A DNA stretch of 11,318 nucleotides, taken from positions 1 through 11,318 of IMG/VR virus record IMGVR_UViG_2778261301_000003. One strand, 5' to 3'. Position numbers and translations under genes: made by a program. Positions 1-11,318 of the stretch are shown piece after piece (the first letter of the stretch is position 1; the number at the start of each line of letters is the position of its first letter). The notes beneath the pieces were generated by a model. The model was given only the letters and a program-made list of their open reading frames with translations. It was not told the DNA's origin and made no database searches. The DNA is from a virus (taxonomy: Duplodnaviria > Heunggongvirae > Uroviricota > Caudoviricetes).

Positions 1-78
1 ATGCTTCCATCGGAAACGATGATCTGGCAGCCTGAGTTCACAGATAAAACACTCTCCAGGAAACCCGGGGCGGTTCAT
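1..78 (-). CDS. Hypothetical protein, 5' portion only (gene continues beyond window start)
   Basis: Reverse-strand ATG at 78-76 in frame to the window edge (MNRPGFPGECFICELRLPDHRFRWKH...), with a weak AAGG Shine-Dalgarno 5 nt upstream. Only 26 codons are visible. Confidence 0.25.
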   Translation of the reverse strand, partial: MNRPGFPGECFICELRLPDHRFRWKH

Positions 79-150
79 TACGCCTTGCTCCATCTTCCGC
101 CATATCGGCATGAATAAGGTCTGCGAGTGTGCTCACATTCACCTCTCCAG

Positions 151-333
151 TTACATTGGTTTTGTAATGTTGCTAGTCATCTTGCGAATAAAAAGATGCG
201 TAAGTAGCCTTGCTTCCCACATGTAAATCTCTTCAAGGCGAGATAAATCTACGAACACCGGACCTTTGTAATCTGGTCTTGATGCCCTTATGTATGAGCT
301 AATAGTTTGTGCATCTTGCTCGTCCAGATTCAT
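151..333 (-). CDS. Hypothetical small protein (60 aa) downstream of ren
   Basis: Track ORF 151..351 begins at a TTG; the first ATG is at 333-331, preceded by a purine-rich SD (GGGGGAGAGGGAAG). No recognisable motif. Confidence 0.4.
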   Translation of the reverse strand: MNLDEQDAQTISSYIRASRPDYKGPVFVDLSRLEEIYMWEARLLTHLFIRKMTSNITKPM

Positions 334-349
334 GACTTCCCTCTCCCCC

Positions 350-381
350 AAATAAAAAGGCCTGCGATTACCAGCAGGCCT
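350..381 (-). terminator. Intrinsic terminator after ren (tR2-like position)
   Basis: Minus-strand hairpin with stem GGCCTGC/GCAGGCC (359-365 and 374-380) and an 8-nt loop, followed on the minus strand by a U-rich tract (A-run 350-358 on the plus strand). Confidence 0.45.
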
Positions 382-406
382 GTTATTAGCTCAGTAATGT
401 AGATGG

Positions 407-697
407 TCATTGCCTTACCTCCATAAGCGCCCTATTAATAAACGCCGTCATTGGATTTGCACATCCCCACCCCGTACCATCTGGATTTCTTTTAATTGGC
501 TCCTTCTTCACTTTGCGTTTTGCATAAATAACCGTCTTCCACTTACGCTCAACAACACTCAAATGCCCTTGTTTCACCATATGCCTTGCTGCTTGAGCGA
601 TTCTGTTATTTGGTATTCCTGTGATCAGTGCTAATTCATGTGGGGAGAATTGTTCATGAGTTTTCAGATATTCCAGGATGATTTCTTTTCCAGTCAC
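407..697 (-). CDS. ren: Ren-like protein (96 aa)
   Basis: Same length as lambda Ren and a similar N-terminus (MTGKE.II.YL.TH...) from memory; located immediately downstream of the replication genes, with its start overlapping the upstream gene's stop (694-697). Confidence 0.55.
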   Translation of the reverse strand: MTGKEIILEYLKTHEQFSPHELALITGIPNNRIAQAARHMVKQGHLSVVERKWKTVIYAKRKVKKEPIKRNPDGTGWGCANPMTAFINRALMEVRQ

Positions 698-1587
698 GAT
701 CTGCTCCTGTAACTATCCCATGTAAACGCAAGAGTGCACCCGCCGCCATCATTCATTCTGTCAATAACACGCTCACCAATGAATGCCGAAAGTTCATCTT
801 TGCTCTGATTACTAATCAGGATTGTTGGCTTCATGTATTCATATCTGGTGTTGATAATTTCGAACATGATTAGCTTTTCAGCATCACTGCCGAACTGCAC
901 GCCAACCTCATCGATTATTAACAAGTCAGGATGCGTAAATTGCCTAATGACTTCTTCTTCAGTTCTGGTTGCGGCCTTAGACCATGTTGATTTGTACTCT
1001 CTGGCAATTTTCAACGCAGTGGTAAATATCACAGAGCTTTGATGCTCGATAATGGCGTGCCTAGCGATAGCCAGTGCAAGATGGTTCTTTCCAGTTCCAG
1101 GCTTACCACACATGACCAGTCCGCCACCTTTTTGAAGGCGTTCAGGCCACTTACAGGCATATGCCTGGCATACCTTAAGAACTCGCTTTGCATCATCGTT
1201 AACAGGCTCATAATTCTGAAGAGTGCAATTTTTGAACCTCTCTGGAATATTGAGAGAATTCAACAAGTATTCAATTTTTGATTGTCTTGCTCTTTGTTCT
1301 GCCTGCTCACGTTCAATCTCTTTCTTACGAATTTTCTCCTCAAGGCACTGTGGGCACTCAGATTTACTTGAAGTAATTCTTTTTCCTGAGATGGTCAGAT
1401 ATTTCTCATAGGAAGTATATTTACCGTGTTTCTCGCACTCTTCCACTGTGCTGGTAACTGACATTCCATCTGATGCTGATCCAATTTTGCTAAACTCAAG
1501 TTTCTGTTTCAGATCAGAAATGTCATTGATTTTTGAGTCTACAAGTTGCCTTTGCAGTGCCAGATTGTAACCATTTGTCGTATTCAT
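694..1587 (-). CDS. DnaC-like replicative helicase loader (IstB/DnaC-type AAA+ ATPase), occupying the lambda P slot
   Basis: Walker A GKPGTGKNHLA and Walker B LLIIDEVG are visible, with a Cys-containing N-terminal region (CEKHG...CPQC). Start chosen at ATG 1587 with AGGAG SD 5 nt upstream and 2 nt after the O stop; the track's upstream ATG at 1605 lies inside O. Confidence 0.8.
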   Translation of the reverse strand: MNTTNGYNLALQRQLVDSKINDISDLKQKLEFSKIGSASDGMSVTSTVEECEKHGKYTSYEKYLTISGKRITSSKSECPQCLEEKIRKKEIEREQAEQRARQSKIEYLLNSLNIPERFKNCTLQNYEPVNDDAKRVLKVCQAYACKWPERLQKGGGLVMCGKPGTGKNHLALAIARHAIIEHQSSVIFTTALKIAREYKSTWSKAATRTEEEVIRQFTHPDLLIIDEVGVQFGSDAEKLIMFEIINTRYEYMKPTILISNQSKDELSAFIGERVIDRMNDGGGCTLAFTWDSYRSRS

Positions 1588-1589
1588 AT

Positions 1590-2435
1590 TCACTCCTGCG
1601 CCCATGAAGGCATTTCAGTTTGTCCGTAATCTTTGGCGGCAAAGTTTTCCTGCATAGCTCGATGCTGCGGCCTCGGTTGAGGTTTCCCCTTTGGAGTCTT
1701 GGGCTCAAAAATCCCCTGCCAACCACTGGCGATGCTCTGGTTTATAATTTCTTCAGGTGTATATCCCTTCTCCAGACTTCTGCTTAGAACGTTGATAGCC
1801 TGAGTGACACTTTGCTTAGACTTGATCGACTTACCTATCTCCTTGCGATAGGTAACCCACGACAACCATGTTTCTGCTGATAACCAATCAGGCAACTCTG
1901 TTTCTAGCGGGTCGAACTTCTGAGAAACTTTTTTGGGGGATATAGGGGGTTTATTAATATTTTCTTTTGTCTTTAAAGAATGTCTTTTGTGTGTCTCTAA
2001 CTTCGAGACATTGAGTGTCTCTAATTTGGAGACATTTTTTGTCTCTAACTTCGAGACAAAGTTGCTAACTTGGAGACACTTGCTGAATTGCCACGCAGAT
2101 ACCTCCCTGTTTACACCGATTTTATTTCCATCCATAAACAGGCAATTCATTGAAATCAGTTCTTTTTTAGCCTTGTTAACATTCTGCCTTGACAGTCCTG
2201 TTAACTGAGCAATTTGCTCATCGGCTATTCGATCTGTTTTCTTATTGAAGCCATATGTTTTCCGGACGTAGGCCAGCATAACTTTCAACTGGCGAGCGGT
2301 TAAATCGGCACTTGCGATAGCTTCCAGCAGCTCGTTAGCGAATCTGGTGTAACCATCATCGATATCAGCCACTCTTAGCTCCTGTTCGGCAAAGTTACCT
2401 CTGCCGAAGTTGAGTATTTTTGCTGTATTTGTCAT
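1590..2435 (-). CDS. O: Replication initiator protein O (lambda O family)
   Basis: N-terminus MTNTAKILNFGRGNFA... matches lambda O from memory; the coding region contains the ori iterons (translated as repeated VSKLET) and an adjacent AT-rich tract, as in lambda ori. Confidence 0.85.
   Translation of the reverse strand: MTNTAKILNFGRGNFAEQELRVADIDDGYTRFANELLEAIASADLTARQLKVMLAYVRKTYGFNKKTDRIADEQIAQLTGLSRQNVNKAKKELISMNCLFMDGNKIGVNREVSAWQFSKCLQVSNFVSKLETKNVSKLETLNVSKLETHKRHSLKTKENINKPPISPKKVSQKFDPLETELPDWLSAETWLSWVTYRKEIGKSIKSKQSVTQAINVLSRSLEKGYTPEEIINQSIASGWQGIFEPKTPKGKPQPRPQHRAMQENFAAKDYGQTEMPSWAQE
1992..2078. repeat. Origin of replication iterons (4 copies, about 24-bp period) inside the O gene
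   Basis: TGTCTCTAACTTCGAGACA at 1992-2010 and 2040-2058, TGTCTCTAATTTGGAGACA at 2016-2034, and a degenerate fourth copy at 2060-2078. Each has inverted-repeat arms TGTCTC/GAGACA. An AT-rich tract at 1921-1991 lies on the O-downstream side. Confidence 0.7.
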
Positions 2436-2447
2436 AATGACTCCTGT

Positions 2448-2524
2448 GGATTGATCCAGTAATGACCTCAGAACTCCATCTGGATTTGATCAGAACGCTC
2501 GGTTGCCGCCGGGCGTTTTTTATT
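2448..2524 (+). ncRNA. oop: oop antisense RNA with pO promoter upstream and intrinsic terminator at its 3' end
   Basis: Sequence TTGATCCAGTAATGACCTCAGAACTCCATCTGGATTTGATCAGAACGCTCGGTTGCCGCCGGGCGTTTTTTATT is near-identical to lambda oop RNA from memory. Candidate pO -35 TTGAGT (2410-2415) and -10 CATAAT (2433-2438); the RNA is antisense to the cII 3' end. Confidence 0.7.
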
Positions 2525-2764
2525 GGTGAGTCCATCAAGCGCATACTTAAAAGCCCTGCTAATCGGACTGATATCTGATGCCATTCCGAAAGCACACAAG
2601 ACCGAAGCAATAAATCTCCAGTCCGTTCTGCTTATCTTCGATTCATGACAGCCAATCATCTTTGCCAGACCGCGCTGGGTAAGCGTTGACAGGTTGATGA
2701 GTAAATCTGTTTCTGCGCGATCAACGTCGCGCTGTGATAGTTTGCTGTAACTTGTTTGTTCCAT
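2468..2764 (-). CDS. cII: cII-family transcriptional activator (98 aa)
   Basis: C-terminus LTNKKRPAATERSDQIQMEF matches the lambda cII C-terminus from memory; the N-terminal HTH region (QRGLAKMIGCHESKISR) is divergent. Position between cro and O. Confidence 0.75.
   Translation of the reverse strand: MEQTSYSKLSQRDVDRAETDLLINLSTLTQRGLAKMIGCHESKISRTDWRFIASVLCAFGMASDISPISRAFKYALDGLTNKKRPAATERSDQIQMEF
2742..2755 (+). promoter_or_regulatory. pRE-like cII-binding motif (TTGC-N6-TTGT) overlapping the cII start region
   Basis: TTGCTGTAACTTGT on the plus strand resembles the TTGC-N6-TTGC cII box of lambda pRE, and is oriented to drive antisense-cro/cI transcription. The second half-site is imperfect. 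Confidence 0.35.
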
Positions 2765-2828
2765 TTCTTACTATTTCCATAGGTAAATAATCACTAATAC
2801 TCATCTTTCGATGAGTGATTAATTAGTT

Positions 2829-2863
2829 ACCGCGTTGTCGGCGGTGCAGATTGATAAAGAGCG
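2829..2863 (-). promoter_or_regulatory. nutR (boxA plus P22-type boxB)
   Basis: On the minus strand, boxA CGCTCTTTAT (2854-2863) is followed 8 nt later by the hairpin ACCGCCGACAACGCGGT (2829-2845) with a GACAA loop, between cro and cII. Confidence 0.6.
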
Positions 2864-2870
2864 GTGTTAC

Positions 2871-3080
<210 letters not shown>

Positions 3081-3097
3081 TTAGTACATGCAATCAT

Positions 3098-3161
3098 TAT
3101 CACCGCCAGAGGTAAAATAGTCAACACGCACGGTGTTAGATATTTATCCCTTGCGGTGATA
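3098..3161. promoter_or_regulatory. OR operator cluster (OR1, OR2, OR3) with divergent pR and pRM
   Basis: TATCACCGCCAGAGGTA (3098-3114), CAACACGCACGGTGTTA (3122-3138) and TATCCCTTGCGGTGATA (3145-3161) match lambda OR1/OR2/OR3. The cI ATG at 3172 sits right at the expected pRM leaderless start. Confidence 0.9.
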
Positions 3162-3168
3162 GATTTAA

Positions 3169-3885
<717 letters not shown>

Positions 3886-3892
3886 CACGTAA

Positions 3893-4330
3893 ATGATTAA
3901 AGAACGTATTTCTTATATCATTCCGATTGCGATGGATGAAGGCAACCCCGTAACTCCAGTTCTTATCTATGAAATGGATAAAGACTCCCATGAAGTGGAT
4001 CTGTCATTTGGCGCTTTTTTTATCGGCCTTAAGGCTACAAAAAAATATTCCATAGGCATTGAGGTTTTCAATGCTCAAGAAATACCGATACCAATTGACA
4101 CAAAACTGTACTCCAACCATAAGTTTTTTACGGTAGCAGAAGCCAACGATGGAGAAACCATCGTATCAACTTCTATGAGAATTAACTTCCCAAGGGTGAA
4201 AATTATCAAGCCTGGGATATTCGAAGTTAGAGCATCACTGGTTAATCCTGAGAAAGGCGAAGTAATTGATGTAAAAAGTTCGTTTTTTGACGTGAAGATA
4301 ACAGGATCAGTTCGCGATGAGTTTAGATAA
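3893..4330 (+). CDS. Hypothetical soluble protein (145 aa) in the rexA-equivalent position
   Basis: ATG 7 nt after the cI stop with no obvious SD, suggesting coupling to cI translation. No TM segment or signal peptide; hydrophobic/polar alternation suggests a beta-rich fold. Not RexA-like by size (145 vs 279 aa); no recognisable catalytic motif. Confidence 0.6.
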   Translation: MIKERISYIIPIAMDEGNPVTPVLIYEMDKDSHEVDLSFGAFFIGLKATKKYSIGIEVFNAQEIPIPIDTKLYSNHKFFTVAEANDGETIVSTSMRINFPRVKIIKPGIFEVRASLVNPEKGEVIDVKSSFFDVKITGSVRDEFR

Positions 4331-4688
4331 CAAGGTTGCTCAGCTTCGTCCAAATCAAAACATATCTCGCCCAATTGGACACTATTCCACTGATGATGCA
4401 TACTCTCGGCATGGTGGAGGAAACGGCGGAGGTAACATGCTTGAGGCTAGAGTTGCAAAGCTAGAGTCTGATGTTGAATACATCAAGCGCGATCTCGCTG
4501 AGGTAAAGTCAGATATAAAATCTGTTGATTCTCGTCTGTCAGGTATTGAGACAAGCATTAGCTCAGCAAAAACCACCATTAAGGCATCTGCGGTCGTTGT
4601 CAGTTTCGTGTTCGCATTTTGCGCCTACATTTTTGGAAGTTATGTATCCAAAATCCTTGATGCCTTAAACGGACTCGTTCTTAAGTAA
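4317..4688 (+). CDS. Hypothetical tail-anchored membrane protein (123 aa): Gly-rich N-terminus, coiled coil, single C-terminal TM helix
   Basis: ATG at 4317 overlaps the upstream stop (4328-4330). An alternative start at ATG 4437 with GGAGG 4 nt upstream would give 83 aa. Heptad-like segment LEARVAKLESDVEYIKRDLAEVKSDIKSVDSRL, then hydrophobic AVVVSFVFAFCAYIFGSYV. Architecture resembles XhlA-like or holin-like small membrane proteins (from memory, unverified). Confidence 0.6.
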   Translation: MSLDNKVAQLRPNQNISRPIGHYSTDDAYSRHGGGNGGGNMLEARVAKLESDVEYIKRDLAEVKSDIKSVDSRLSGIETSISSAKTTIKASAVVVSFVFAFCAYIFGSYVSKILDALNGLVLK

Positions 4689-4694
4689 CACACA

Positions 4695-4721
4695 ACCCGG
4701 CCTCAGTGCCGGGTTTTCTTT
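4695..4721 (+). terminator. Intrinsic terminator closing the cI operon (t-imm equivalent)
   Basis: Stem ACCCGGC/GCCGGGT (4695-4701 and 4708-4714) with loop CTCAGT, followed by TTTTCTTT. Confidence 0.7.
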
Positions 4722-4872
4722 GCCTCTCGATCCCCCCCTCCCAACAACACATAACCATTTGTATTTATTGGAAAACTAATAGATACAACTTGCTAAACAG
4801 TGCAATTCTGATCCCTCACCTACCTAACAATTCACCCCTGCAAAAAATAAATCCATATAAAAAACATACAGA

Positions 4873-4935
4873 TAACCATCTGCGGTGATAAATTATCTCT
4901 AGCGGTGTTGACACAAATACCACTAGCGGTGATAC
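4873..4935 (+). promoter_or_regulatory. OL operator cluster (OL3, OL2, OL1) with pL promoter reading rightward
   Basis: AACCATCTGCGGTGATA (4873-4889), TATCTCTAGCGGTGTTG (4893-4909) and TACCACTAGCGGTGATA (4917-4933) are lambda-type 17-mers. pL -35 TTGACA (4907-4912) and -10 GATACT (4930-4935), followed by the conserved ACATCAGCAGGACGC start region. Confidence 0.9.
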
Positions 4936-4981
4936 TAAACACATCAGCAGGACGCTGGAAGCCAAACGGAACAGATTGGCA

Positions 4982-5016
4982 TGCTCTTTAACTTCGATGG
5001 GGCGCTGACAAAGCGC
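4982..5016 (+). promoter_or_regulatory. nutL (boxA plus P22-type boxB)
   Basis: boxA TGCTCTTTAAC (4982-4992) and boxB hairpin GCGCTGACAAAGCGC (5002-5016) with a GACAA pentaloop, in the pL leader upstream of N. Confidence 0.7.
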
Positions 5017-5135
5017 AAACAGATACCAAACGAGATGGGTTTGGCGGTGATGTGAATTGCAGATGCAACGACAGCAACCAGAAGATCAGCACCTGGCGCA
5101 TCACCACCAAAGCCATTTCACATGAGGAAAACATC

Positions 5136-5444
5136 ATGACGGTAATCGTGTACGGAAAATCAACATTTGCAGGAAATGCCAAAACTCGCCGTCATGAGCG
5201 GCGCAGAAAGCTGGCTATCGAGCGTGATTCCATCTGCAACATCATCGATTCGATCTTCGGCACAGACAGTGAGGAAGATGTTCAGGAAGAACCGAGAAAG
5301 CGTTTAAGTCTTTCTGAAAAAGCAATATCACTCGGCATCATCAGTAAATCAAATACAGATGCGAATGGCGGAAGCGTTTGTTTGCCTGAAGTTGCACTGT
5401 ATGCTGCTGGTTACAGGTCAATGAAATCAATTACGGCGAGATAG
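5136..5444 (+). CDS. N: Antitermination protein N, P22 type (102 aa)
   Basis: N-terminal arginine-rich motif GNAKTRRHERRRKLAIERD matches the P22 N boxB-binding peptide (from memory). Start at ATG 5136 with AGGAA SD; the track's 130-aa ORF from 5052 runs into the nut leader and is rejected. Confidence 0.85.
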   Translation: MTVIVYGKSTFAGNAKTRRHERRRKLAIERDSICNIIDSIFGTDSEEDVQEEPRKRLSLSEKAISLGIISKSNTDANGGSVCLPEVALYAAGYRSMKSITAR

Positions 5445-5446
5445 AA

Positions 5447-5713
5447 ATGACTAGCAAACAAGTATCATATAAATGCTATTGCCCTTTATGTGGAAGAAAA
5501 TTCAGCGCCAAGGCAGCATGGAAGCATATCAATGATTATCATCCAAAAGCATCAGAACGTGAGTTGATGATGATAAGAGATGTAAAACGAGAAAAAATTT
5601 CTTTCGCAACAAAGCCACTAAACGCCAACAAAAACGCAATATTGTATCAAATGCATCGTTCAAGTGGTCCAGATTATTCTGGAGGGCTTCCATCTCTTGG
5701 AAAGAAAAAATAA
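5447..5713 (+). CDS. Small zinc-finger protein (88 aa), C2H2-like
   Basis: Motif C-x2-C-x11-H-x4-H (CPLCGRKFSAKAAWKHINDYH) near the N-terminus; starts 2 nt after the N stop; basic C-terminal tail. Confidence 0.55.
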   Translation: MTSKQVSYKCYCPLCGRKFSAKAAWKHINDYHPKASERELMMIRDVKREKISFATKPLNANKNAILYQMHRSSGPDYSGGLPSLGKKK

Positions 5714-5733
5714 CCACGCTCATGCTGGTTTTT
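5712..5733 (+). terminator. Possible weak intrinsic terminator (tL1-like) after the zinc-finger gene
   Basis: Imperfect hairpin AACCACGC/GCTGGTT (one bulge) with loop TCAT, followed by TTT, immediately after the stop at 5711-5713. Confidence 0.3.
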
Positions 5734-5846
5734 AATGACATAAATAACCGTATTTACTACCGCAAGCCACGCAGTGAAATGGGTGTGACTTGTGTTGGTC
5801 GCCAGAAAATGAAATTAGGCAGCAAACCACTTATTTGAGGTGAGAT

Positions 5847-6212
5847 ATGGAAGAACAAGCAAACAAGATTCTCGTAGAACTACTGCAAAAAGCCAGTAAT
5901 GGAATAGACGCGGCTGTTTCATTTAGCCAGGCACAGATTCCTGATGTCATCCATCAGCTTTTGATGTGGCACGCCGTATCATCAGCTGGAATTCAGGCTA
6001 TCTGTGTATTGGTGATTATAGCGTGTGTTTATCTGATGATTTTTGCATGGAATAAAGGAGATGATGCAGATATTGTTATTTTATCACTACTTGTCACATC
6101 AGGAATAGCGATTACTTCTATTGTTGTTTTCTTCAATTATTTCGACTGGCTGAAAATTTGGCTTGCTCCAAAACTTTACCTTATCGAATATGCCGCATCA
6201 TTGGTTAAGTAA
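5847..6212 (+). CDS. Small inner-membrane protein (121 aa, two predicted TM helices)
   Basis: GAGGTGAG SD upstream of ATG 5847; hydrophobic segments AVSSAGIQAICVLVIIACVYLMIFAW and IVILSLLVTSGIAITSIVVFFNYF. Confidence 0.6.
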   Translation: MEEQANKILVELLQKASNGIDAAVSFSQAQIPDVIHQLLMWHAVSSAGIQAICVLVIIACVYLMIFAWNKGDDADIVILSLLVTSGIAITSIVVFFNYFDWLKIWLAPKLYLIEYAASLVK

Positions 6213-6265
6213 TTTCATGCCGCATAGTCGGCCTTTATTTTTGGCATAAACAATATGGGGTAAAA

Positions 6266-6592
6266 ATGAAAGTTTTAATGGTTTATGAAAATGTTCCAGA
6301 GTCGACTGAAATCTATATTTTTGATGCCAATGAAGATGAAGTTAACGATTTGAAATTGTCTCACGGCAATTACACAAATGCTAATTGTGATGAAAGTATC
6401 GAAAAAGCACTATCACGTGTTCTTGTCAGAATTAGTGATCCAGAACATTGTGATGATGATTGGCTTTCTTATTGTGGAGCGGTAAAAACTGATGCAGGAA
6501 AATGGAGTAAAAGTAAAGTTGATAACTCAACTCCAATCATTATGAAAGATAGTGATATTGAAATGGTAATAATAACCGGAATGATTATGTAG
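6266..6592 (+). CDS. Hypothetical acidic protein (108 aa)
   Basis: ORF with a G-rich SD; about 21 Asp/Glu versus about 10 Lys/Arg by hand count; AT-rich codon usage typical of moron genes. Confidence 0.5.
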   Translation: MKVLMVYENVPESTEIYIFDANEDEVNDLKLSHGNYTNANCDESIEKALSRVLVRISDPEHCDDDWLSYCGAVKTDAGKWSKSKVDNSTPIIMKDSDIEMVIITGMIM

Positions 6593-6608
6593 GCTGCGAA
6601 TAAGCACT

Positions 6609-6636
6609 GTGTATTCATTCAAACGAGTGAATACAC
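6609..6636 (+). other. Perfect 9-bp inverted repeat (GTGTATTCA-N10-TGAATACAC) in the intergenic region
   Basis: Arms at 6609-6617 and 6628-6636; no U-tract follows. Could be an RNA hairpin (processing site or pause) or a dimeric protein-binding site. Confidence 0.35.
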
Positions 6637-6737
6637 GGAGCAATGTCGCTCGTAACTAAACAGGAGCCGACTTGTTCTGATTATTGGAAATCTTCTTTGC
6701 CCTCCAATGTGAGGGCAATTTTTTTGACGGAGGATAT

Positions 6738-7049
6738 ATGAAATTACGTGTCTGGCATATCCCGCAAGTACCTATGAAGCCGTTCATTGTAGAAGTGGCA
6801 AGTGTTGAAGAGGGTGTTCGCTTGATGGATGCACTGGCTGATTATGACGCCTTTCAGTATGACAACAACATCAAGCCTGACTACTGCAATGCTAACGGCC
6901 TTGAGATGTGGGATGAGAGCCTTACTGATGAAGATTTATCAGAGATGGAGCTTACGGATCGCTGGGTAGATTGGTACAGCGAATGCCAATGTTACGACGA
7001 CCCACGTAAATATATCGAAAGCCTGAAAGAAGAAACCTCAGCAGCCTGA
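6738..7049 (+). CDS. Hypothetical acidic protein (103 aa)
   Basis: Start chosen at ATG 6738 with GGAGG SD (track ORF starts earlier at 6684 without an SD); about 24 acidic versus about 10 basic residues; Cys pairs (CNANG, ECQC). Confidence 0.55.
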   Translation: MKLRVWHIPQVPMKPFIVEVASVEEGVRLMDALADYDAFQYDNNIKPDYCNANGLEMWDESLTDEDLSEMELTDRWVDWYSECQCYDDPRKYIESLKEETSAA

Positions 7050-7084
7050 GCGCGGATTTGACGCATACAAATTAAGGAGGATAT

Positions 7085-8053
7085 ATGAGTGAAGTAACAG
7101 ACTTAGTTGTTATTGAAAAAGCAAATGCAATGACTGTATTTCAGTCTGCAGACCAGATTGAAGAAATTCTCCAAAAGGTTGAACGTGAAGTTATGTCCTT
7201 TGTGCCTGATATCACAACGGCAAAGGGCAGAAAGGAGATCGCTTCTCTGGCGTATAAAGTTGCGCAGACGAAAACATATCTCGATGGTCTTGGCAAAGAC
7301 CTTGTTGCTGAACTGAAGGAAATTCCAAAGCTAATTGATGCTAACCGCAAGACAGTGCGTGATCGCCTTGATGAGCTGAAAGCCAAGGCGCGCCAGCCTC
7401 TTACTGATTATGAGGAGGAGCAGGCACGGATTAAAGCCGAAGAAGAAGCTAAGGCAGCAGCCGAAGCTCTCGCAAAGCAAATTGAGTCTGACCATGAAAT
7501 AGCGATTTTGATGGATCGCGAATTTGACCGCCAAAGAGAAGAGGCAAGACTCAAAGCGGAGCAGGAAAAGCGAGAGCATGAAGAACGCTTAAAAAGAGAA
7601 GCTGAAGAGAAAGCCAGAGCTGAAGCCGAAGCAAAGGCAAAAGCCGAAATTGAAGCAGCAGCAAGGCGAGAAGCAGAAGCTAAGGCAGCAGCGGAACGTG
7701 CAGAGCGTGAACGTATTGAAGCCGAGCAACGAGCACAGCGCGAAGCAAAAGAGGCAGCAGAACGAGCTGAAAGAGAAAAGCATGCGGCAATTGAAGCAGA
7801 ACGTCGTAAAGCACAGGAGGAGGCTGAACGAATCCGGCGCGAGGCTGAAGCAAAAGAGCAAGCCAGAATAGCAGAAGAAAAAAGAATCAAGGACGAAGAA
7901 GAGCGTAGAGCAAAGGATAAAGCTCACCGGAAAGAAGTAAATAACAAAATACTGGCTGACCTTATCAAGGTTGGCGCATCAGAAGATGTTGCTAAAAATA
8001 TCATAACAGCCATCGTAAAAGGCGAAGTATTCGCAACAAAAATAACCTACTAA
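7085..8053 (+). CDS. Hypothetical protein (322 aa) with a long Ala/Glu/Lys/Arg-rich helical repeat region
   Basis: Strong SD AAGGAGG; N-terminal domain of about 115 aa, a central low-complexity A/E/K/R-rich segment of roughly 170 aa (TolA domain II-like composition), and a C-terminal domain of about 40 aa. Confidence 0.7.
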   Translation: MSEVTDLVVIEKANAMTVFQSADQIEEILQKVEREVMSFVPDITTAKGRKEIASLAYKVAQTKTYLDGLGKDLVAELKEIPKLIDANRKTVRDRLDELKAKARQPLTDYEEEQARIKAEEEAKAAAEALAKQIESDHEIAILMDREFDRQREEARLKAEQEKREHEERLKREAEEKARAEAEAKAKAEIEAAARREAEAKAAAERAERERIEAEQRAQREAKEAAERAEREKHAAIEAERRKAQEEAERIRREAEAKEQARIAEEKRIKDEEERRAKDKAHRKEVNNKILADLIKVGASEDVAKNIITAIVKGEVFATKITY

Positions 8054-8077
8054 TAAAACCAACATAAGGAACCACCC

Positions 8078-8224
8078 ATGATTTACGCAATCGCGGGAGG
8101 CGCTCGCATGGGTGCCTTCCAATTAAATGAATCTTTACTTGAACGAATCACCCGTAAATTACGTGACGGATGGAAACGCCTTATCGACATACTTAATCAG
8201 CCAGGAGTTCCCAAAAATGGATAA
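8078..8224 (+). CDS. cIII: cIII protein (48 aa), anti-FtsH regulator of cII stability
   Basis: Translation MIYAIAGGARMGAFQLNESLLERITRKLRDGWKRLIDILNQPGVPKNG matches the lambda cIII core (ESLLERITRKLRDGWKRLIDILNQPGVPKNG) from memory; AAGGA SD. Below the 60-aa ORF-track cutoff, so found by hand. Confidence 0.85.
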   Translation: MIYAIAGGARMGAFQLNESLLERITRKLRDGWKRLIDILNQPGVPKNG

Positions 8225-8330
8225 AACACTTATGGCTATCCAGACTAAATTCACTATCGCCACTTTTATTGGCGATGAAAAGATGTTTCGTGAGGCCGTC
8301 GAAGCCTACAGGAAATGGAGGTCAAAATGA
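8217..8330 (+). CDS. kil: Kil-like small protein (37 aa)
   Basis: Starts inside the cIII stop region with AGGAG SD; MDKTLMAIQTKFTIATFIGDEKMFREAVEAY resembles lambda Kil as I recall it, and the position right after cIII is correct. Confidence 0.5.
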   Translation: MDKTLMAIQTKFTIATFIGDEKMFREAVEAYRKWRSK

Positions 8331-8515
8331 TTCCGGTAGAACTGGCGAAAACTCCAGAGTTAAGTCGATTAAAAAGAGAATATCACATTGCTGAGGCTCG
8401 TTACTGGCGTAAAGCGGGAGATAAATCAAAGAAACAACTTTGTTTATGGCAGGCACAAAGAGAGCGCATGAATGAGCGCGAGTTTCTTTCCCCCCCATCC
8501 AAATTACCATTCTGA
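8327..8515 (+). CDS. Hypothetical small basic protein (62 aa)
   Basis: ATG 8327 with GGAGG 5 nt upstream, overlapping the kil stop (ATGA); the track's upstream start at 8315 lacks SD spacing. Confidence 0.45.
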   Translation: MIPVELAKTPELSRLKREYHIAEARYWRKAGDKSKKQLCLWQAQRERMNEREFLSPPSKLPF

Positions 8516-8523
8516 GGCAAATT

Positions 8524-9204
8524 ATGGGAACTGCGACATTAATACTCGGTGAGTCTGGCACCGGAAAATCAACCAGCATGAGAAATATCAATCCAGAGGA
8601 AGCAATACTTATAAAACCAATAGGCAAGCCGCTTCCATTTAAATCAAAAGACTGGCTGGCATGGGATGCCAGAGCAAAAAAAGGAACCGTAGTTACCACT
8701 GACAAATGGGACGTAATAGTTGCCGTAATTAAGCGTGCTCACGAATACGGGAAAAGAATCGTTATTGTTGATGACTTCCAGTATGTGATGAGCAATGAGT
8801 TTATGCGCCGCTCAGAAGAAAAATCGTTTGATAAATTTACTGAGATAGGCCGCCACGCATGGGAGGTGATTAAGGCTGCACAGGATGCACCTGATGACCT
8901 GAGAGTCTATTTTCTTGCGCACACCGAAGAAACCCCTATGGGGCGCGTGAAAATGAAAACTATCGGCAAAATGCTGGACGAGAAAATCACTGTCGAAGGC
9001 ATGTTTACTATAGTTCTTCGCACTCTTACCCGCGATGACCAGTTCTTTTTCACCACGAAAAACAACGGTGCAGACACTGTTAAATCCCCAATGGGAATGT
9101 TTGATTCCAATGAGATTGATAACGATCTCTCTTTCGTCGATGCCACTGTTTGTGATTACTACGGCATCAATAATGTTCATCAAATTAAGGAAAACGCCGC
9201 ATGA
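8524..9204 (+). CDS. Sak4-like RecA-core ATPase (AAA_24-type), phage recombination protein
   Basis: N-terminal Walker A LILGESGTGKST and Walker B-like IVIVDD, about 226 aa; located where lambda has the Red genes and followed by an SSB-like gene. Confidence 0.6.
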   Translation: MGTATLILGESGTGKSTSMRNINPEEAILIKPIGKPLPFKSKDWLAWDARAKKGTVVTTDKWDVIVAVIKRAHEYGKRIVIVDDFQYVMSNEFMRRSEEKSFDKFTEIGRHAWEVIKAAQDAPDDLRVYFLAHTEETPMGRVKMKTIGKMLDEKITVEGMFTIVLRTLTRDDQFFFTTKNNGADTVKSPMGMFDSNEIDNDLSFVDATVCDYYGINNVHQIKENAA

Positions 9205-9788
9205 GCAACGTGATTTTTACTTATAACGAAGAAGCAGCACTGACCGCAGGGCAAGGTGGTTTTATTAACGAAACTGGCGCTCATATCATTACCATTACTG
9301 AAGCAGAACTAAAGCAATCAGAAAAAGGAGCCAAATTTATTGAGTTTTCTGGCGAATCCGACGACGGACGTAAAATCCAATATCTTAGCGTCTGTGTTCA
9401 GAAAAATGACGGAACGGAAAACAAATTTGGCGCAAATGTCGTTCACGCCATGATGGGGTGTGCCGGGATTGGACAATTAACGCAGCATATGGTTTCCGCC
9501 AGTAAATTTGTTGCTCCTGAGTTTCACGGAAAGAAAATCGGGTTAGTGCTACAGAAAGTATTAACCACAAACAAAAAGACTGGTGCAGACAGTTACCAGA
9601 TGGAAATACGCATCCCGTTTATTGCACAAACAGGCCAAACACTTAAAGAAAAGGCGGAAGGCAAGCAACCAGAAACTATCGCCAACATGGTTTCCAGCCT
9701 CAAAGATAAAGACAATCGCTCTAAAAACGTAAGCCAGAATCATGCAGATGATTATGGTTACAGCCAGAACGATTACCCTCCTTTCTGA
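9201..9788 (+). CDS. Putative ssDNA-binding protein partner of Sak4 (195 aa)
   Basis: ATGA overlap with the upstream gene; acidic C-terminal tail ending ...DDYGYSQNDYPPF, reminiscent of the acidic tails with terminal Phe in SSB and T7 gp2.5. The OB fold is not verifiable by eye. Confidence 0.4.
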   Translation: MSNVIFTYNEEAALTAGQGGFINETGAHIITITEAELKQSEKGAKFIEFSGESDDGRKIQYLSVCVQKNDGTENKFGANVVHAMMGCAGIGQLTQHMVSASKFVAPEFHGKKIGLVLQKVLTTNKKTGADSYQMEIRIPFIAQTGQTLKEKAEGKQPETIANMVSSLKDKDNRSKNVSQNHADDYGYSQNDYPPF

Positions 9789-9811
9789 TTATTGAAAATA
9801 AGGCTCCCATT

Positions 9812-10108
9812 ATGCCAGCGCCTCTGTATGGTGCGGATGACCCGCGCCGCTGTTCCGGCAATTCCGTATCGGAGGTGCTGGATAAATTCAGAAAAAACTA
9901 CGACCGGATAATGTCGCTACCGCAGGAAACGAAAGAGGAAAAGGAATTTCGCCATTGTATATGGCTTGCAGAGAAAGAAGAACGCGAGCGAATTTACCAG
10001 ACATCAATCCGACCATTCCGCAAAGCCACATATACCCACTTCCCTGAATATATCGACCCTCGCCTGCGTAATTACCGCTCACGCTATGGCGCTATCAGTA
10101 ATGACTGA
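9812..10108 (+). CDS. Hypothetical protein (98 aa)
   Basis: ATG-initiated ORF in the operon, weak AAGG SD; charged, Arg-rich, no recognisable motif. Confidence 0.45.
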
Positions 10109-10118
10109 GGAATTTACC

Positions 10119-10286
10119 ATGAGAGGACTTGCATACAATCCCGGCATTCTTCCGGCAGAAATGATTATTCGCCAACGAGTAAAGCCAATGCCATCGAGAG
10201 AGGAATTGCTTAAGAGAAATTCTTTTCCATCAGTGAATCAAAACAAATATCTGAATGCGATGTGGCGCAAAGGAGGCGACCAGTGA
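10119..10286 (+). CDS. Hypothetical small protein (55 aa)
   Basis: ATG 10119 with GAGG SD, starting 10 nt after the upstream stop; the longer track ORF from 9966 overlaps the previous gene. Confidence 0.35.
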
Positions 10287-11026
10287 GCAAAATTAACTAT
10301 CAGGCACTGCGTGAAGCGGCAGAGAAAGCCGGTGAAGATAAGTGGCAGGCTAAAAAAATAAATGGTGATTTTTTCGTTATTCGTCACGGTAGTTATACAA
10401 GACAGCATGGCTACACATCGTATCAACCCATTGCGGAGATTGATTGTAAGCCAGTCCGGGATTTTGTTGCCAAGGCTAATCCGGCTACCGTGCTGGCACT
10501 GCTGGATGAGAACGAAAGCATGTGCCGCGACCTCATTGCTCGCAATGGTGAGATTGAAGGGCTTCGAAAACTGGTTGCTGAACTTGAGGAGACAAAATCA
10601 AAACTCAACGAGCAGCGTGAATATTACGAAGGTGTTATCTCGGATGGAAGTAAGCGTATTGCTGAACTGGAGAAAAGCGAAGAGCAACTCATCAATGAGC
10701 GTGACCATGCTGAGTCTGCTTTAGCTGATATGTATTTTGCAGCAACCGGGGATAGGCCGGAGTGGAGTAACTGGTTCGGCTTTTCAGATGCCGTCGATAC
10801 CGTGGTTGACAGAATTGCTGATTTAGAAGCTAAACAGCCATCGCCAGCAGTACTGGAAGGACTGGTTAAAGCAGTGCGCTTCTATGAACAGGTAAAGTGT
10901 GAGAATCCGCCAGCTGAAACCGGAGCATGGAAGGACGCTGTTGACTGGGTGCTTAAAGAGGCTTGTCAGGCTGTAAATATTGGCACCAAAGGAGACGCAG
11001 GAGAGCAAAGCGATGAAAAACCGTAA
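10283..11026 (+). CDS. Ead/Ea22-like early-region protein (about 247 aa)
   Basis: GTG start at 10283 with AGGAGG SD 6 nt upstream, overlapping the previous stop. N-terminus [16 protein letters not shown]... and a central coiled coil resemble lambdoid Ea22-family proteins as I recall them. Confidence 0.5.
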
Positions 11027-11201
11027 AGCAAAGATTCTGTTAGCTCGCAGAAACGGTGTTGGGGTCTGGCGATGGTTGAGGATTAGCAACAGACGAGTGA
11101 GGTTGACGGGGTGTTGCGGGGTGATGGGGCACAGTTGTTGCAAAAAGCCCAGTGCGGCGCAAAACCGCTGGAAAAACCACTTGCGCACTAAAGGAGAGTG
11201 A
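11013..11201 (+). CDS. Possible small basic Cys-rich protein (62 aa)
   Basis: ATG 11013 with AGGAG SD, overlapping the previous stop; R/K-rich with CC-x5-CC; the coding region is G-rich. Could be non-coding. Confidence 0.3.
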   Translation: MKNRKAKILLARRNGVGVWRWLRISNRRVRLTGCCGVMGHSCCKKPSAAQNRWKNHLRTKGE

Positions 11202-11202
11202 T

Positions 11203-11318
11203 ATGGCGTTAACACACCGAGAACTCTGTCAGATTGCGTATAAGTTCCTTAAGCGCAACGGGTTCAAGGTTTGTTTTCATGACCGCTTTATAGCTGTAAC
11301 CAGTACCGGAGAACAGCC
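11203..11318 (+). CDS. Hypothetical protein, 5' portion only (continues past window end)
   Basis: ATG 11203 with AAAGGAGAG SD; open to the window edge (MALTHRELCQIAYKFLKRNGFKVCFHDRFIAVTSTGEQ...). Confidence 0.4.
   Translation, partial: MALTHRELCQIAYKFLKRNGFKVCFHDRFIAVTSTGEQ

Follow-up and report, generated by a model that had tools for sequence, protein, structure and literature searches.

Here, we describe orf123, the final gene of the cI repressor operon in a window of 11,318 nucleotides (nt) from a Caudoviricetes virus record (IMGVR_UViG_2778261301_000003, positions 1 to 11,318), which is the immunity region of a lambdoid prophage (lambda-immunity). We find that orf123 (4317..4688, plus strand) is a real, common and uncharacterized prophage gene that, together with its partner gene orf145, occupies the rexAB slot of lambda (laid out as cI-rexA-rexB-terminator), and that its family is modular, with several unrelated coiled-coil/transmembrane (TM) modules swapped onto the partner and an N-terminal tail. 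Besides encoding a long isoform of 123 amino acids (aa), orf123 appears to contain within it a promoter, a ribosome-binding site and a start codon that would serve a shorter product. This putative short isoform (M41-K123, 83 aa, 4437..4688, plus strand) would consist of the coiled coil and the TM helix, as suggested by start conservation, a recombination breakpoint and AlphaFold2 modeling.

Two probable in-frame starts in orf123

The initial annotation of this DNA described orf123 as a protein of three modules, with a Gly-rich hydrophilic N-terminus, a coiled coil and a C-terminal TM helix, and we found that its heptad pattern, hydropathy and AlphaFold2 model agree with this architecture. The open reading frame (ORF) exists on the plus strand and its translation contains the strings given earlier, including SRHGGGNGGGN, LEARVAKLESDVEYIKRDLAEVKSDIKSVDSRLSGIETSI and AVVVSFVFAFCAYIFGSYV. 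Residues 1-40 (4317..4436) form a variable tail that is predicted to be disordered and ends in the linker GGGNGGGN, based on AlphaFold2 and alignment. Residues 41-89 (4437..4583) form a heptad coiled coil of six heptads around the conserved core MLEARVAKLESDVEYIKRD, whose columns are nearly invariant (alignment A1), and the coiled coil runs on into the C-terminal TM helix. At heptad a/d positions between residues 42 and 88, 13 of 14 residues are Leu, Ile, Val or Met, which was reached by 0 of 20,000 shuffles. The single TM helix (residues 92-110, 4590..4646) is the sole hydrophobic 19-mer, with a mean Kyte-Doolittle value of 2.11 compared to a maximum of -0.08 elsewhere, and is followed by a 13-aa tail (SKILDALNGLVLK). 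From the lack of a signal peptide, the placement of K85 and K89 on the N-terminal side of the TM helix and the mere 13 residues beyond it, an N-in, C-out topology is expected. AlphaFold2, run on a 35-sequence alignment, gave residues 1-36 a predicted local distance difference test score (pLDDT) below 50 and modeled one helix over residues 41-122, which starts at the first residue of the short form. A sequence search of the PDB with orf123 returned weak coiled-coil noise only, several of these hits being trimeric, such as Lpp and the designed CC-Tri peptides.

The initial annotation had offered ATG 4317 or ATG 4437 as alternative starts. Both sites are present, with ATG 4317 overlapping the orf145 stop by 14 nt and ATG 4437 having an upstream GGAGG, but the comparative evidence supports both rather than a choice between them, and most likely both are used. 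In 47 of 47 unique homologue ORFs, which represent 16 tail types, the long frame stays open for 17 codons or more ahead of the internal start, and at most loci the first start codon of the long ORF overlaps the partner's stop or lies within a few nt of it. Codons 1-33 also show a dN/dS of 0.25-0.6 (dS 1.28 and dN 0.32 for the window compared to locus L057). The open frame, the abutting start and a dN/dS below 1 argue against a single 83-aa product with the upstream 40 codons untranslated.

The internal start is also conserved in the homologues. Codon 41/42 is ATG, GTG or TTG in all 54 lineages checked, being ATG in 42 lineages, GTG in four (L002, L052, L082 and L090) and TTG in eight (L085, L087 and L094-L099), so that non-ATG cases are GTG or TTG in 12 of 12. 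No other Val or Leu codon was seen at this position among the 54 lineages, and TTG accounts for 5 of 36 other Leu codons in the six TTG lineages counted (L094-L099). Two Shine-Dalgarno-like (SD-like) GGAGG motifs lie within Gly codons on the plus strand (4416-4420 and 4428-4432), and across homologues a GGAGG-like sequence is found 4-8 nt upstream of the internal start. The mean energy of the anti-SD duplex is -10.6 kcal/mol, compared to -8.5 for synonymous resampling, and GGA makes up 31% of Gly codons at the SD region and 20% locally. Of 48 sequences, 33 use AGA or AGG for Arg45, the fifth codon of the putative short form, compared to a background of 21%. The Gly-rich linker is also conserved at the amino-acid level; the earlier suggestion that the Gly-rich stretch is really a ribosome-binding site stands as to the putative binding site, but the stretch is a conserved protein linker as well. 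In addition, the recombination breakpoint coincides with the internal start codon.

A promoter scan identified a sigma-70 promoter-like element within the gene (TGGACA-17 nt-CATACT, 4376..4404, plus strand; -35 at 4376-4381 and -10 at 4399-4404), the -10 hexamer of which ends 32 nt before ATG 4437. By strict criteria, 27 of 45 unique homologue sequences carry a site whose -10 hexamer ends 29-42 nt ahead of the internal start, compared to 1.6 expected from shuffles and to a background of 0.6% of positions within these loci, although the significance of this count is somewhat inflated because the position range was chosen post hoc. Relaxed criteria, which add extended -10 sites, raise the count to 32 of 45 sequences compared to a background of 3.4%. 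The -10 hexamer occupies different codon phases, as in CAT-ACT (His-Thr), gCA-TAC-Tct (Ala-Tyr-Ser) and tCA-TCA-Ttt, which indicates a constraint on the DNA and not on the protein.

Gene callers often pick the internal start, and public start calls disagree for one gene type, giving 90-93 aa from the internal start or 146-148 aa, with the long ORF open in the DNA (records P0131, P0183 and P0055 compared to P0100-P0105; loci L090, 2336-2776, and L091, 2390-2773). We considered P0055, P0131 and P0183 as natural short-only genes, and the DNA keeps the long ORF open in each; since it does, these calls are annotation choices and no independent proof. They nonetheless count toward the alternative that orf123 makes a single product, either of 83 aa only or of 123 aa only with incidental internal signals, as does RefSeq, which annotates the long form in E. 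coli (Escherichia coli) genomes. We consider this alternative improbable, since a long-only product is at odds with GTG or TTG in every non-ATG lineage, an SD sequence stronger than synonymous codons would give and the constant spacing of the promoter-like element.

Together, these findings lend strong comparative support to a nested short isoform, which we regard as probable. On the other side of the balance, the promoter-like element is missing in 13 of 45 sequences even by the relaxed criteria, no natural short-only gene was found among the records and loci inspected, and the putative promoter, SD and start are drawn from consensus and conservation evidence.

Family, modules and partner gene

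Homologues of orf123 are widespread in prophages. The protein matches phrog_6136 over its full length (E 3e-46), and all PHROGs matched by the family carry the label 'unknown function'. We found 76 close homologues of orf123 in Enterobacterales and 80 IMG/VR loci that carry the family, and in a profile search the cluster representatives numbered 2964 at E<=1e-3 and 295 at E<=1e-10. Among these, some long proteins with multi-stretch coiled coils probably match by composition. The cassette of orf145 and orf123 is present at a nucleotide identity of at least 98% in 16 of 5426 complete E. coli genomes, under the labels 'hypothetical' or 'hemolysin XhlA family'. When the cassette was compared with 50,697 phage records by megablast, no match was obtained; a protein-level search of phage records recovered epsilon34, g341c, NM-3 and three Enterobacter phages, and plasmids yielded one weak partial match. 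Members from cultured phages include Salmonella epsilon34 gp45/gp44 and g341c. The gene pairs 45/44 of epsilon34 and 40/39 of g341c are true homologues and are located behind a c2-type repressor; epsilon34 gp45 matches phrog_5893 (E 2e-62), and gp44 shares the N1 tail and linker but differs in its coiled-coil/TM module. By position, genes 45/44 have been assigned to the operon of the repressor, 'like rexA and rexB', with no database matches reported (PMC2629481). Our literature searches found no study of the orf123 family.

Alignment of the family revealed a constant order, in which a hypervariable N-tail is followed by the conserved segment [H/Y]-GGGNGGG-x-M-LEARVAKLESDVEYIKRD and then by divergent coiled-coil/TM ends. 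The N-tail falls into 16 unrelated types, and the partner gene and the N-tail type co-segregate across loci. On the other hand, the TM modules (C1, C2, C3, LR-60 type and epsilon34 type) assort independently of the partner and N-tail, where the label C2 lumps two distinct C-terminal modules, the L054 type and the LR-60 type. For instance, N-tail N1 is found with the C1, L054-type, LR-60-type, C3 and epsilon34-type modules. Sliding identity breaks at about +105-120 nt, which corresponds to the internal start, both between the window and L002 and between L054 and epsilon34, and a second break follows the conserved core at about +180 nt between the window and L054.

The partner gene orf145 (3893..4330, plus strand) encodes 145 aa with a confident predicted fold (pLDDT 86.7), a cytoplasmic Ig-like all-beta sandwich for which the best structural matches are generic. 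It is without a signal sequence, and a PDB sequence search with it gave no match. In 54 of 56 unique loci, the family member adjoins a partner gene, with gaps of -116 to +9 nt; this partner is usually of the orf145 family but sometimes encodes a Zn-ribbon-like protein of 110-132 aa or a 90-aa protein. Two distant relatives, L095 (1501-1755) and L099 (1193-1788), lie directly after a phage integrase, L095 with no partner gene and L099 with a partner of 102 aa. We also considered whether phrog_3556, which has 276 profile positions, is a fusion of partner and effector; matches of relatives are confined to positions 128-276, and none of 99 loci held a fused ORF.

In 44 of 54 unique loci, the pair is immediately preceded by a repressor gene of the same orientation, which belongs to the S24 cI-type, the short HTH_3/Phage_CI_repr or, in immI-like contexts, the Arc/Mnt-type class. 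The cassette is found at an amino-acid identity of at least 99% behind three different repressors (L001, L003 and L009). Taking window positions 3172-4688 as the reference, an identical cassette follows a 66%-identical cI in strain PK5 (L003) and an unrelated S24 repressor in L009. Since the same cassette stands behind differing repressors in these two loci, it moves independently of immunity type. As a separate observation, the Arc/Mnt (immI-like) loci carry a small gene after the cassette with a mirror architecture, an N-terminal TM helix followed by a coiled coil (L043, 4333-4665, and L083, 4299-4673), and we found no family assignment for this gene in L043 and L083.

The initial annotation likened orf123 to XhlA-type hemolysins and holin-like proteins, and neither assignment held up. 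For PF10779 (XhlA), orf123 scored 21.6 bits (E 2.4e-4) against a gathering threshold of 34.7, and the gene lies outside a lysis cassette, its neighbors being cI, orf145, the terminator, PL and N instead of the holin XhlB and the amidase XlyA, which flank xhlA in PBSX (PMC6834076). Of 35 relatives tested, 21 match XhlA at E<=0.01 (best E 8.3e-6), but the archaeal coiled-coil family FlaC_arch matches as many, namely 24. The only holin-like hit was phrog_10340 (E 0.0034 over 28 residues), which is noise, and there is no endolysin in the 11-kb window. XhlA of Bacillus PBSX and the CCDC90-like/DUF1640 proteins share their plan with the short form, as they are small proteins of about 80 aa with an N-terminal coiled coil and one C-terminal TM helix; the long form adds a 40-aa tail with its Gly-rich linker. 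orf123 itself gave no match to PF07798 (CCDC90-like/DUF1640, cut-off 33.5 bits). The C-terminal part of a distant relative, L065 (3968-4447), passes this cut-off (43.6 vs 33.5 bits), which links the conserved core of the family to another tail-anchored coiled-coil family. Scans of Pfam and NCBIfam gave no above-threshold assignment for orf123 and no Rex family match, and Rfam gave no match over the whole window.

An XhlA-type holin accessory or lysis-timing protein for the prophage's own lysis is nevertheless a reading to be weighed, since XhlA is needed alongside the holin and endolysin for PBSX lysis (PMC5589764), many orf123 relatives carry the NCBI label 'hemolysin XhlA', and the short form is XhlA-like in size and layout. 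In PBSX, moreover, xepA, which encodes a beta-sandwich, directly precedes xhlA, the same order as orf145-orf123 (PMC6834076). We examined orf145 as an XepA/YomS homologue that would mirror this arrangement; XepA and YomS are absent among its top structural matches, which leaves a parallel in gene order only. With similarity below threshold and a different gene neighborhood, we find a lysis role very unlikely.

The surrounding immunity region

The operon begins with cI (3172..3885, plus strand), which encodes a repressor with HTH_3 and Peptidase_S24 domains (PF00717, E 6e-28; PF01381, E 4e-11) and which we take to be near-identical to lambda cI. A PR-like promoter (TTGACT-17-GATAAT, 3124..3096) was identified by promoter scan on the minus strand, which also carries cro, cII and the replication genes. 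On the plus strand, cI is followed by a 7-nt gap, orf145, a 14-nt overlap, orf123, an intrinsic terminator, PL and N, which places orf123 ahead of PL and N. Relatives show this arrangement as well. The terminator (4694..4725), which ends the cI operon, is an 8-bp GC-rich stem followed by UUUUCUUU, with a free energy of -14.3 kcal/mol (z -3.7) over 4694-4715, and an identical terminator is found in L002 behind a different TM module. The PL promoter (TTGACA-17 nt-GATACT, 4908..4936, plus strand) marks the end of the rex-like slot, and the N antiterminator is encoded at 5052-5444 (plus strand; PF25694, E 1.5e-35). Genes for abortive infection (Abi), among them rexAB and bstA, are known to reside in the interval between cI and N (PMC8585504).

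Farther along the plus strand, the window combines lambda-type immunity with P22-type early-left genes. Shortly 3' of N in the PL operon, a 121-aa ORF with several hydrophobic segments and no Pfam match (5847-6212) is positioned roughly like the sieB site of lambda and P22, and a partial copy of it is present in L004, L005 and L011. A homologue of P22 gene 17, annotated as 'superinfection exclusion gene product 17', lies at 6741-7049 (PF17420, E 7e-55). In P22, gene 17 serves in phage escape from a resident prophage's exclusion, and the early-left operon thus has a counter-exclusion gene near the candidate exclusion cassette. The ORF at 7085-8053 encodes a protein of 322 aa that has a long E/A/K/R-rich repeat region of high charge and no Pfam match, and RefSeq labels one of its relatives 'cell envelope biogenesis protein TolA'. 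The window further encodes the Abc2 anti-RecBCD protein (9812-10108; PF11043, E 4e-62) and an Ead/Ea22-like protein (10262-11026; PF13935), both on the plus strand.

Possible functions of the cassette

The sequence establishes the architecture of orf123 and its operon context, and from position, architecture and modularity we infer a function. We give even chances to the reading as a whole, in which orf123 is the membrane part of a two-gene accessory cassette (orf145 and orf123) that is transcribed with the prophage repressor. Its functional part, to which we give slightly less than even chances, is that orf123 may be a RexAB-like exclusion or Abi effector, in which the partner would dock on the tail of the long isoform while the short isoform would adjust assembly or confer self-immunity. 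The idea of a membrane effector put forward in the initial annotation fits such a lysogen-expressed two-gene cassette in the rexAB slot.

The comparison with lambda, whose Rex system shuts out superinfecting phages through a collapse of the membrane potential, is closest in layout. Like RexA/RexB, orf145/orf123 share a transcript with cI and precede a terminator and PL, and in both pairs a cytoplasmic protein is combined with a membrane protein, although RexB is polytopic and orf123 combines a coiled coil with a single TM helix. In lambda, rexB alone is expressed from the promoter pLIT, which lies inside the upstream coding sequence, whereas the candidate element at 4376-4404 lies inside the membrane gene itself and, unlike pLIT, would yield an N-terminally truncated isoform. 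The RexA:RexB ratio sets activity (Parma 1992, cited in PMC8585504). A prophage exclusion gene with two in-frame polypeptides is known from P22 SieB/Esc, where the shorter one counteracts exclusion (PMC12197685). SieB/Esc is unrelated in sequence, is located in the PL operon and is switched by the antisense RNA sas, and we saw no antisense element here. The details of SieB/Esc were reportedly worked out by Ranade and Poteete in 1993. Two in-frame starts in one membrane-protein gene are also known from the lambda S105/S107 holin-antiholin, for which the isoform ratio is proposed to set the lesion threshold. The S starts are two codons apart on one mRNA; in orf123 the distance is 40 codons, and a separate promoter-like element precedes the second start.

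In a RexAB-like effector of this kind, the beta-sandwich partner would dock on the N-terminal tail of the long isoform in the lysogen, and the complex would be kept inactive or armed. A cue from a superinfecting phage would alter the contact between partner and tail, after which the coiled coil would oligomerize the TM helices into a membrane lesion that could depolarize or prematurely lyse the cell, resulting in abortive infection or exclusion. The short isoform, made from its own promoter and start, would co-assemble via the shared coiled coil and set the threshold, and it could confer self-immunity on the prophage once PRM transcription stops after induction, a logic that resembles rexB alone from pLIT or Esc from inside sieB.

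Several findings weigh against an effector of the RexAB kind. We found no sequence similarity between orf145/orf123 and RexA/RexB in Pfam, NCBIfam and PADLOC, and their architectures differ; in PADLOC-DB 2.0.0, the best match for orf123 was CorA-like (E 0.0046, noise), and none was obtained for orf145 or for 10 further relatives and partners. The generic beta-sandwich fold of orf145 points to no sensor function, and the co-segregation of partner and N-tail could reflect physical DNA linkage alone. Furthermore, the pair is not obligatory, since some relatives are without a recognizable partner or adjoin an integrase (L095).

Two other functions would also account for a small membrane protein in this slot. 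The first is a non-lethal superinfection exclusion (Sie), or another lysogenic conversion at the inner membrane such as blocked DNA entry or an envelope change. P22 SieA and HK97 gp15 act in this way without killing the cell, and HK97 gp15 is a small membrane Sie protein of a lysogeny module. orf123 is similarly membrane-anchored in a repressor operon, and the Sie proteins of prophages tend to be small, membrane-located products of lysogeny modules (PMC10461980). However, orf123 lacks a signal peptide and places 89 hydrophilic residues ahead of its TM helix, so that it would be nearly all cytoplasmic with 13 residues outside, and its partner has no signal sequence either, whereas injection blockers usually act from the periplasmic face. 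Since a modular sensor-like partner with interchangeable TM modules also fits an effector better, we regard non-lethal exclusion or conversion as unlikely. The second is an addiction module resembling a toxin-antitoxin system, with orf123 as membrane toxin and orf145 or the short isoform as antidote, which would stabilize the prophage and not defend against phages. The tight coupling of the two genes, one of them for a small membrane protein, is in keeping with this, and nested or overlapping antidotes are known in other systems. On the other hand, the partner has no DNA-binding or antitoxin-like domain, expression is via the repressor promoter and not by autoregulation, and the cassette is swapped among phages as are other cI-N slot morons, so that we attach little probability to addiction.

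Returning to the RexAB-like effector, a broader and more doubtful proposal makes the cassette the first known member of an Abi family that is modular and widespread in prophages. The hypervariable partner plus tail would act as 'sensor', the interchangeable modules as 'pore', and the tail-less isoform as antidote or threshold setter. For the family, the sequences predict two isoforms from one gene, a promoter inside the gene, covariation of a docking tail with the partner, and membrane modules that can be swapped.

These findings bear on annotation, as long and short calls are inconsistent and the 'hemolysin XhlA' labels rest on sub-threshold similarity. The family is common in Enterobacterales prophages and absent from the defense databases searched. 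If a defense role is true, the cassette would be a compact two-gene system with a modular sensor/effector design and a possible mechanism of self-immunity. If the broader proposal holds, the tail-less isoform would also make the prophage immune to its own cassette when it is induced, which bears on how cI-N exclusion systems spare their own phage.

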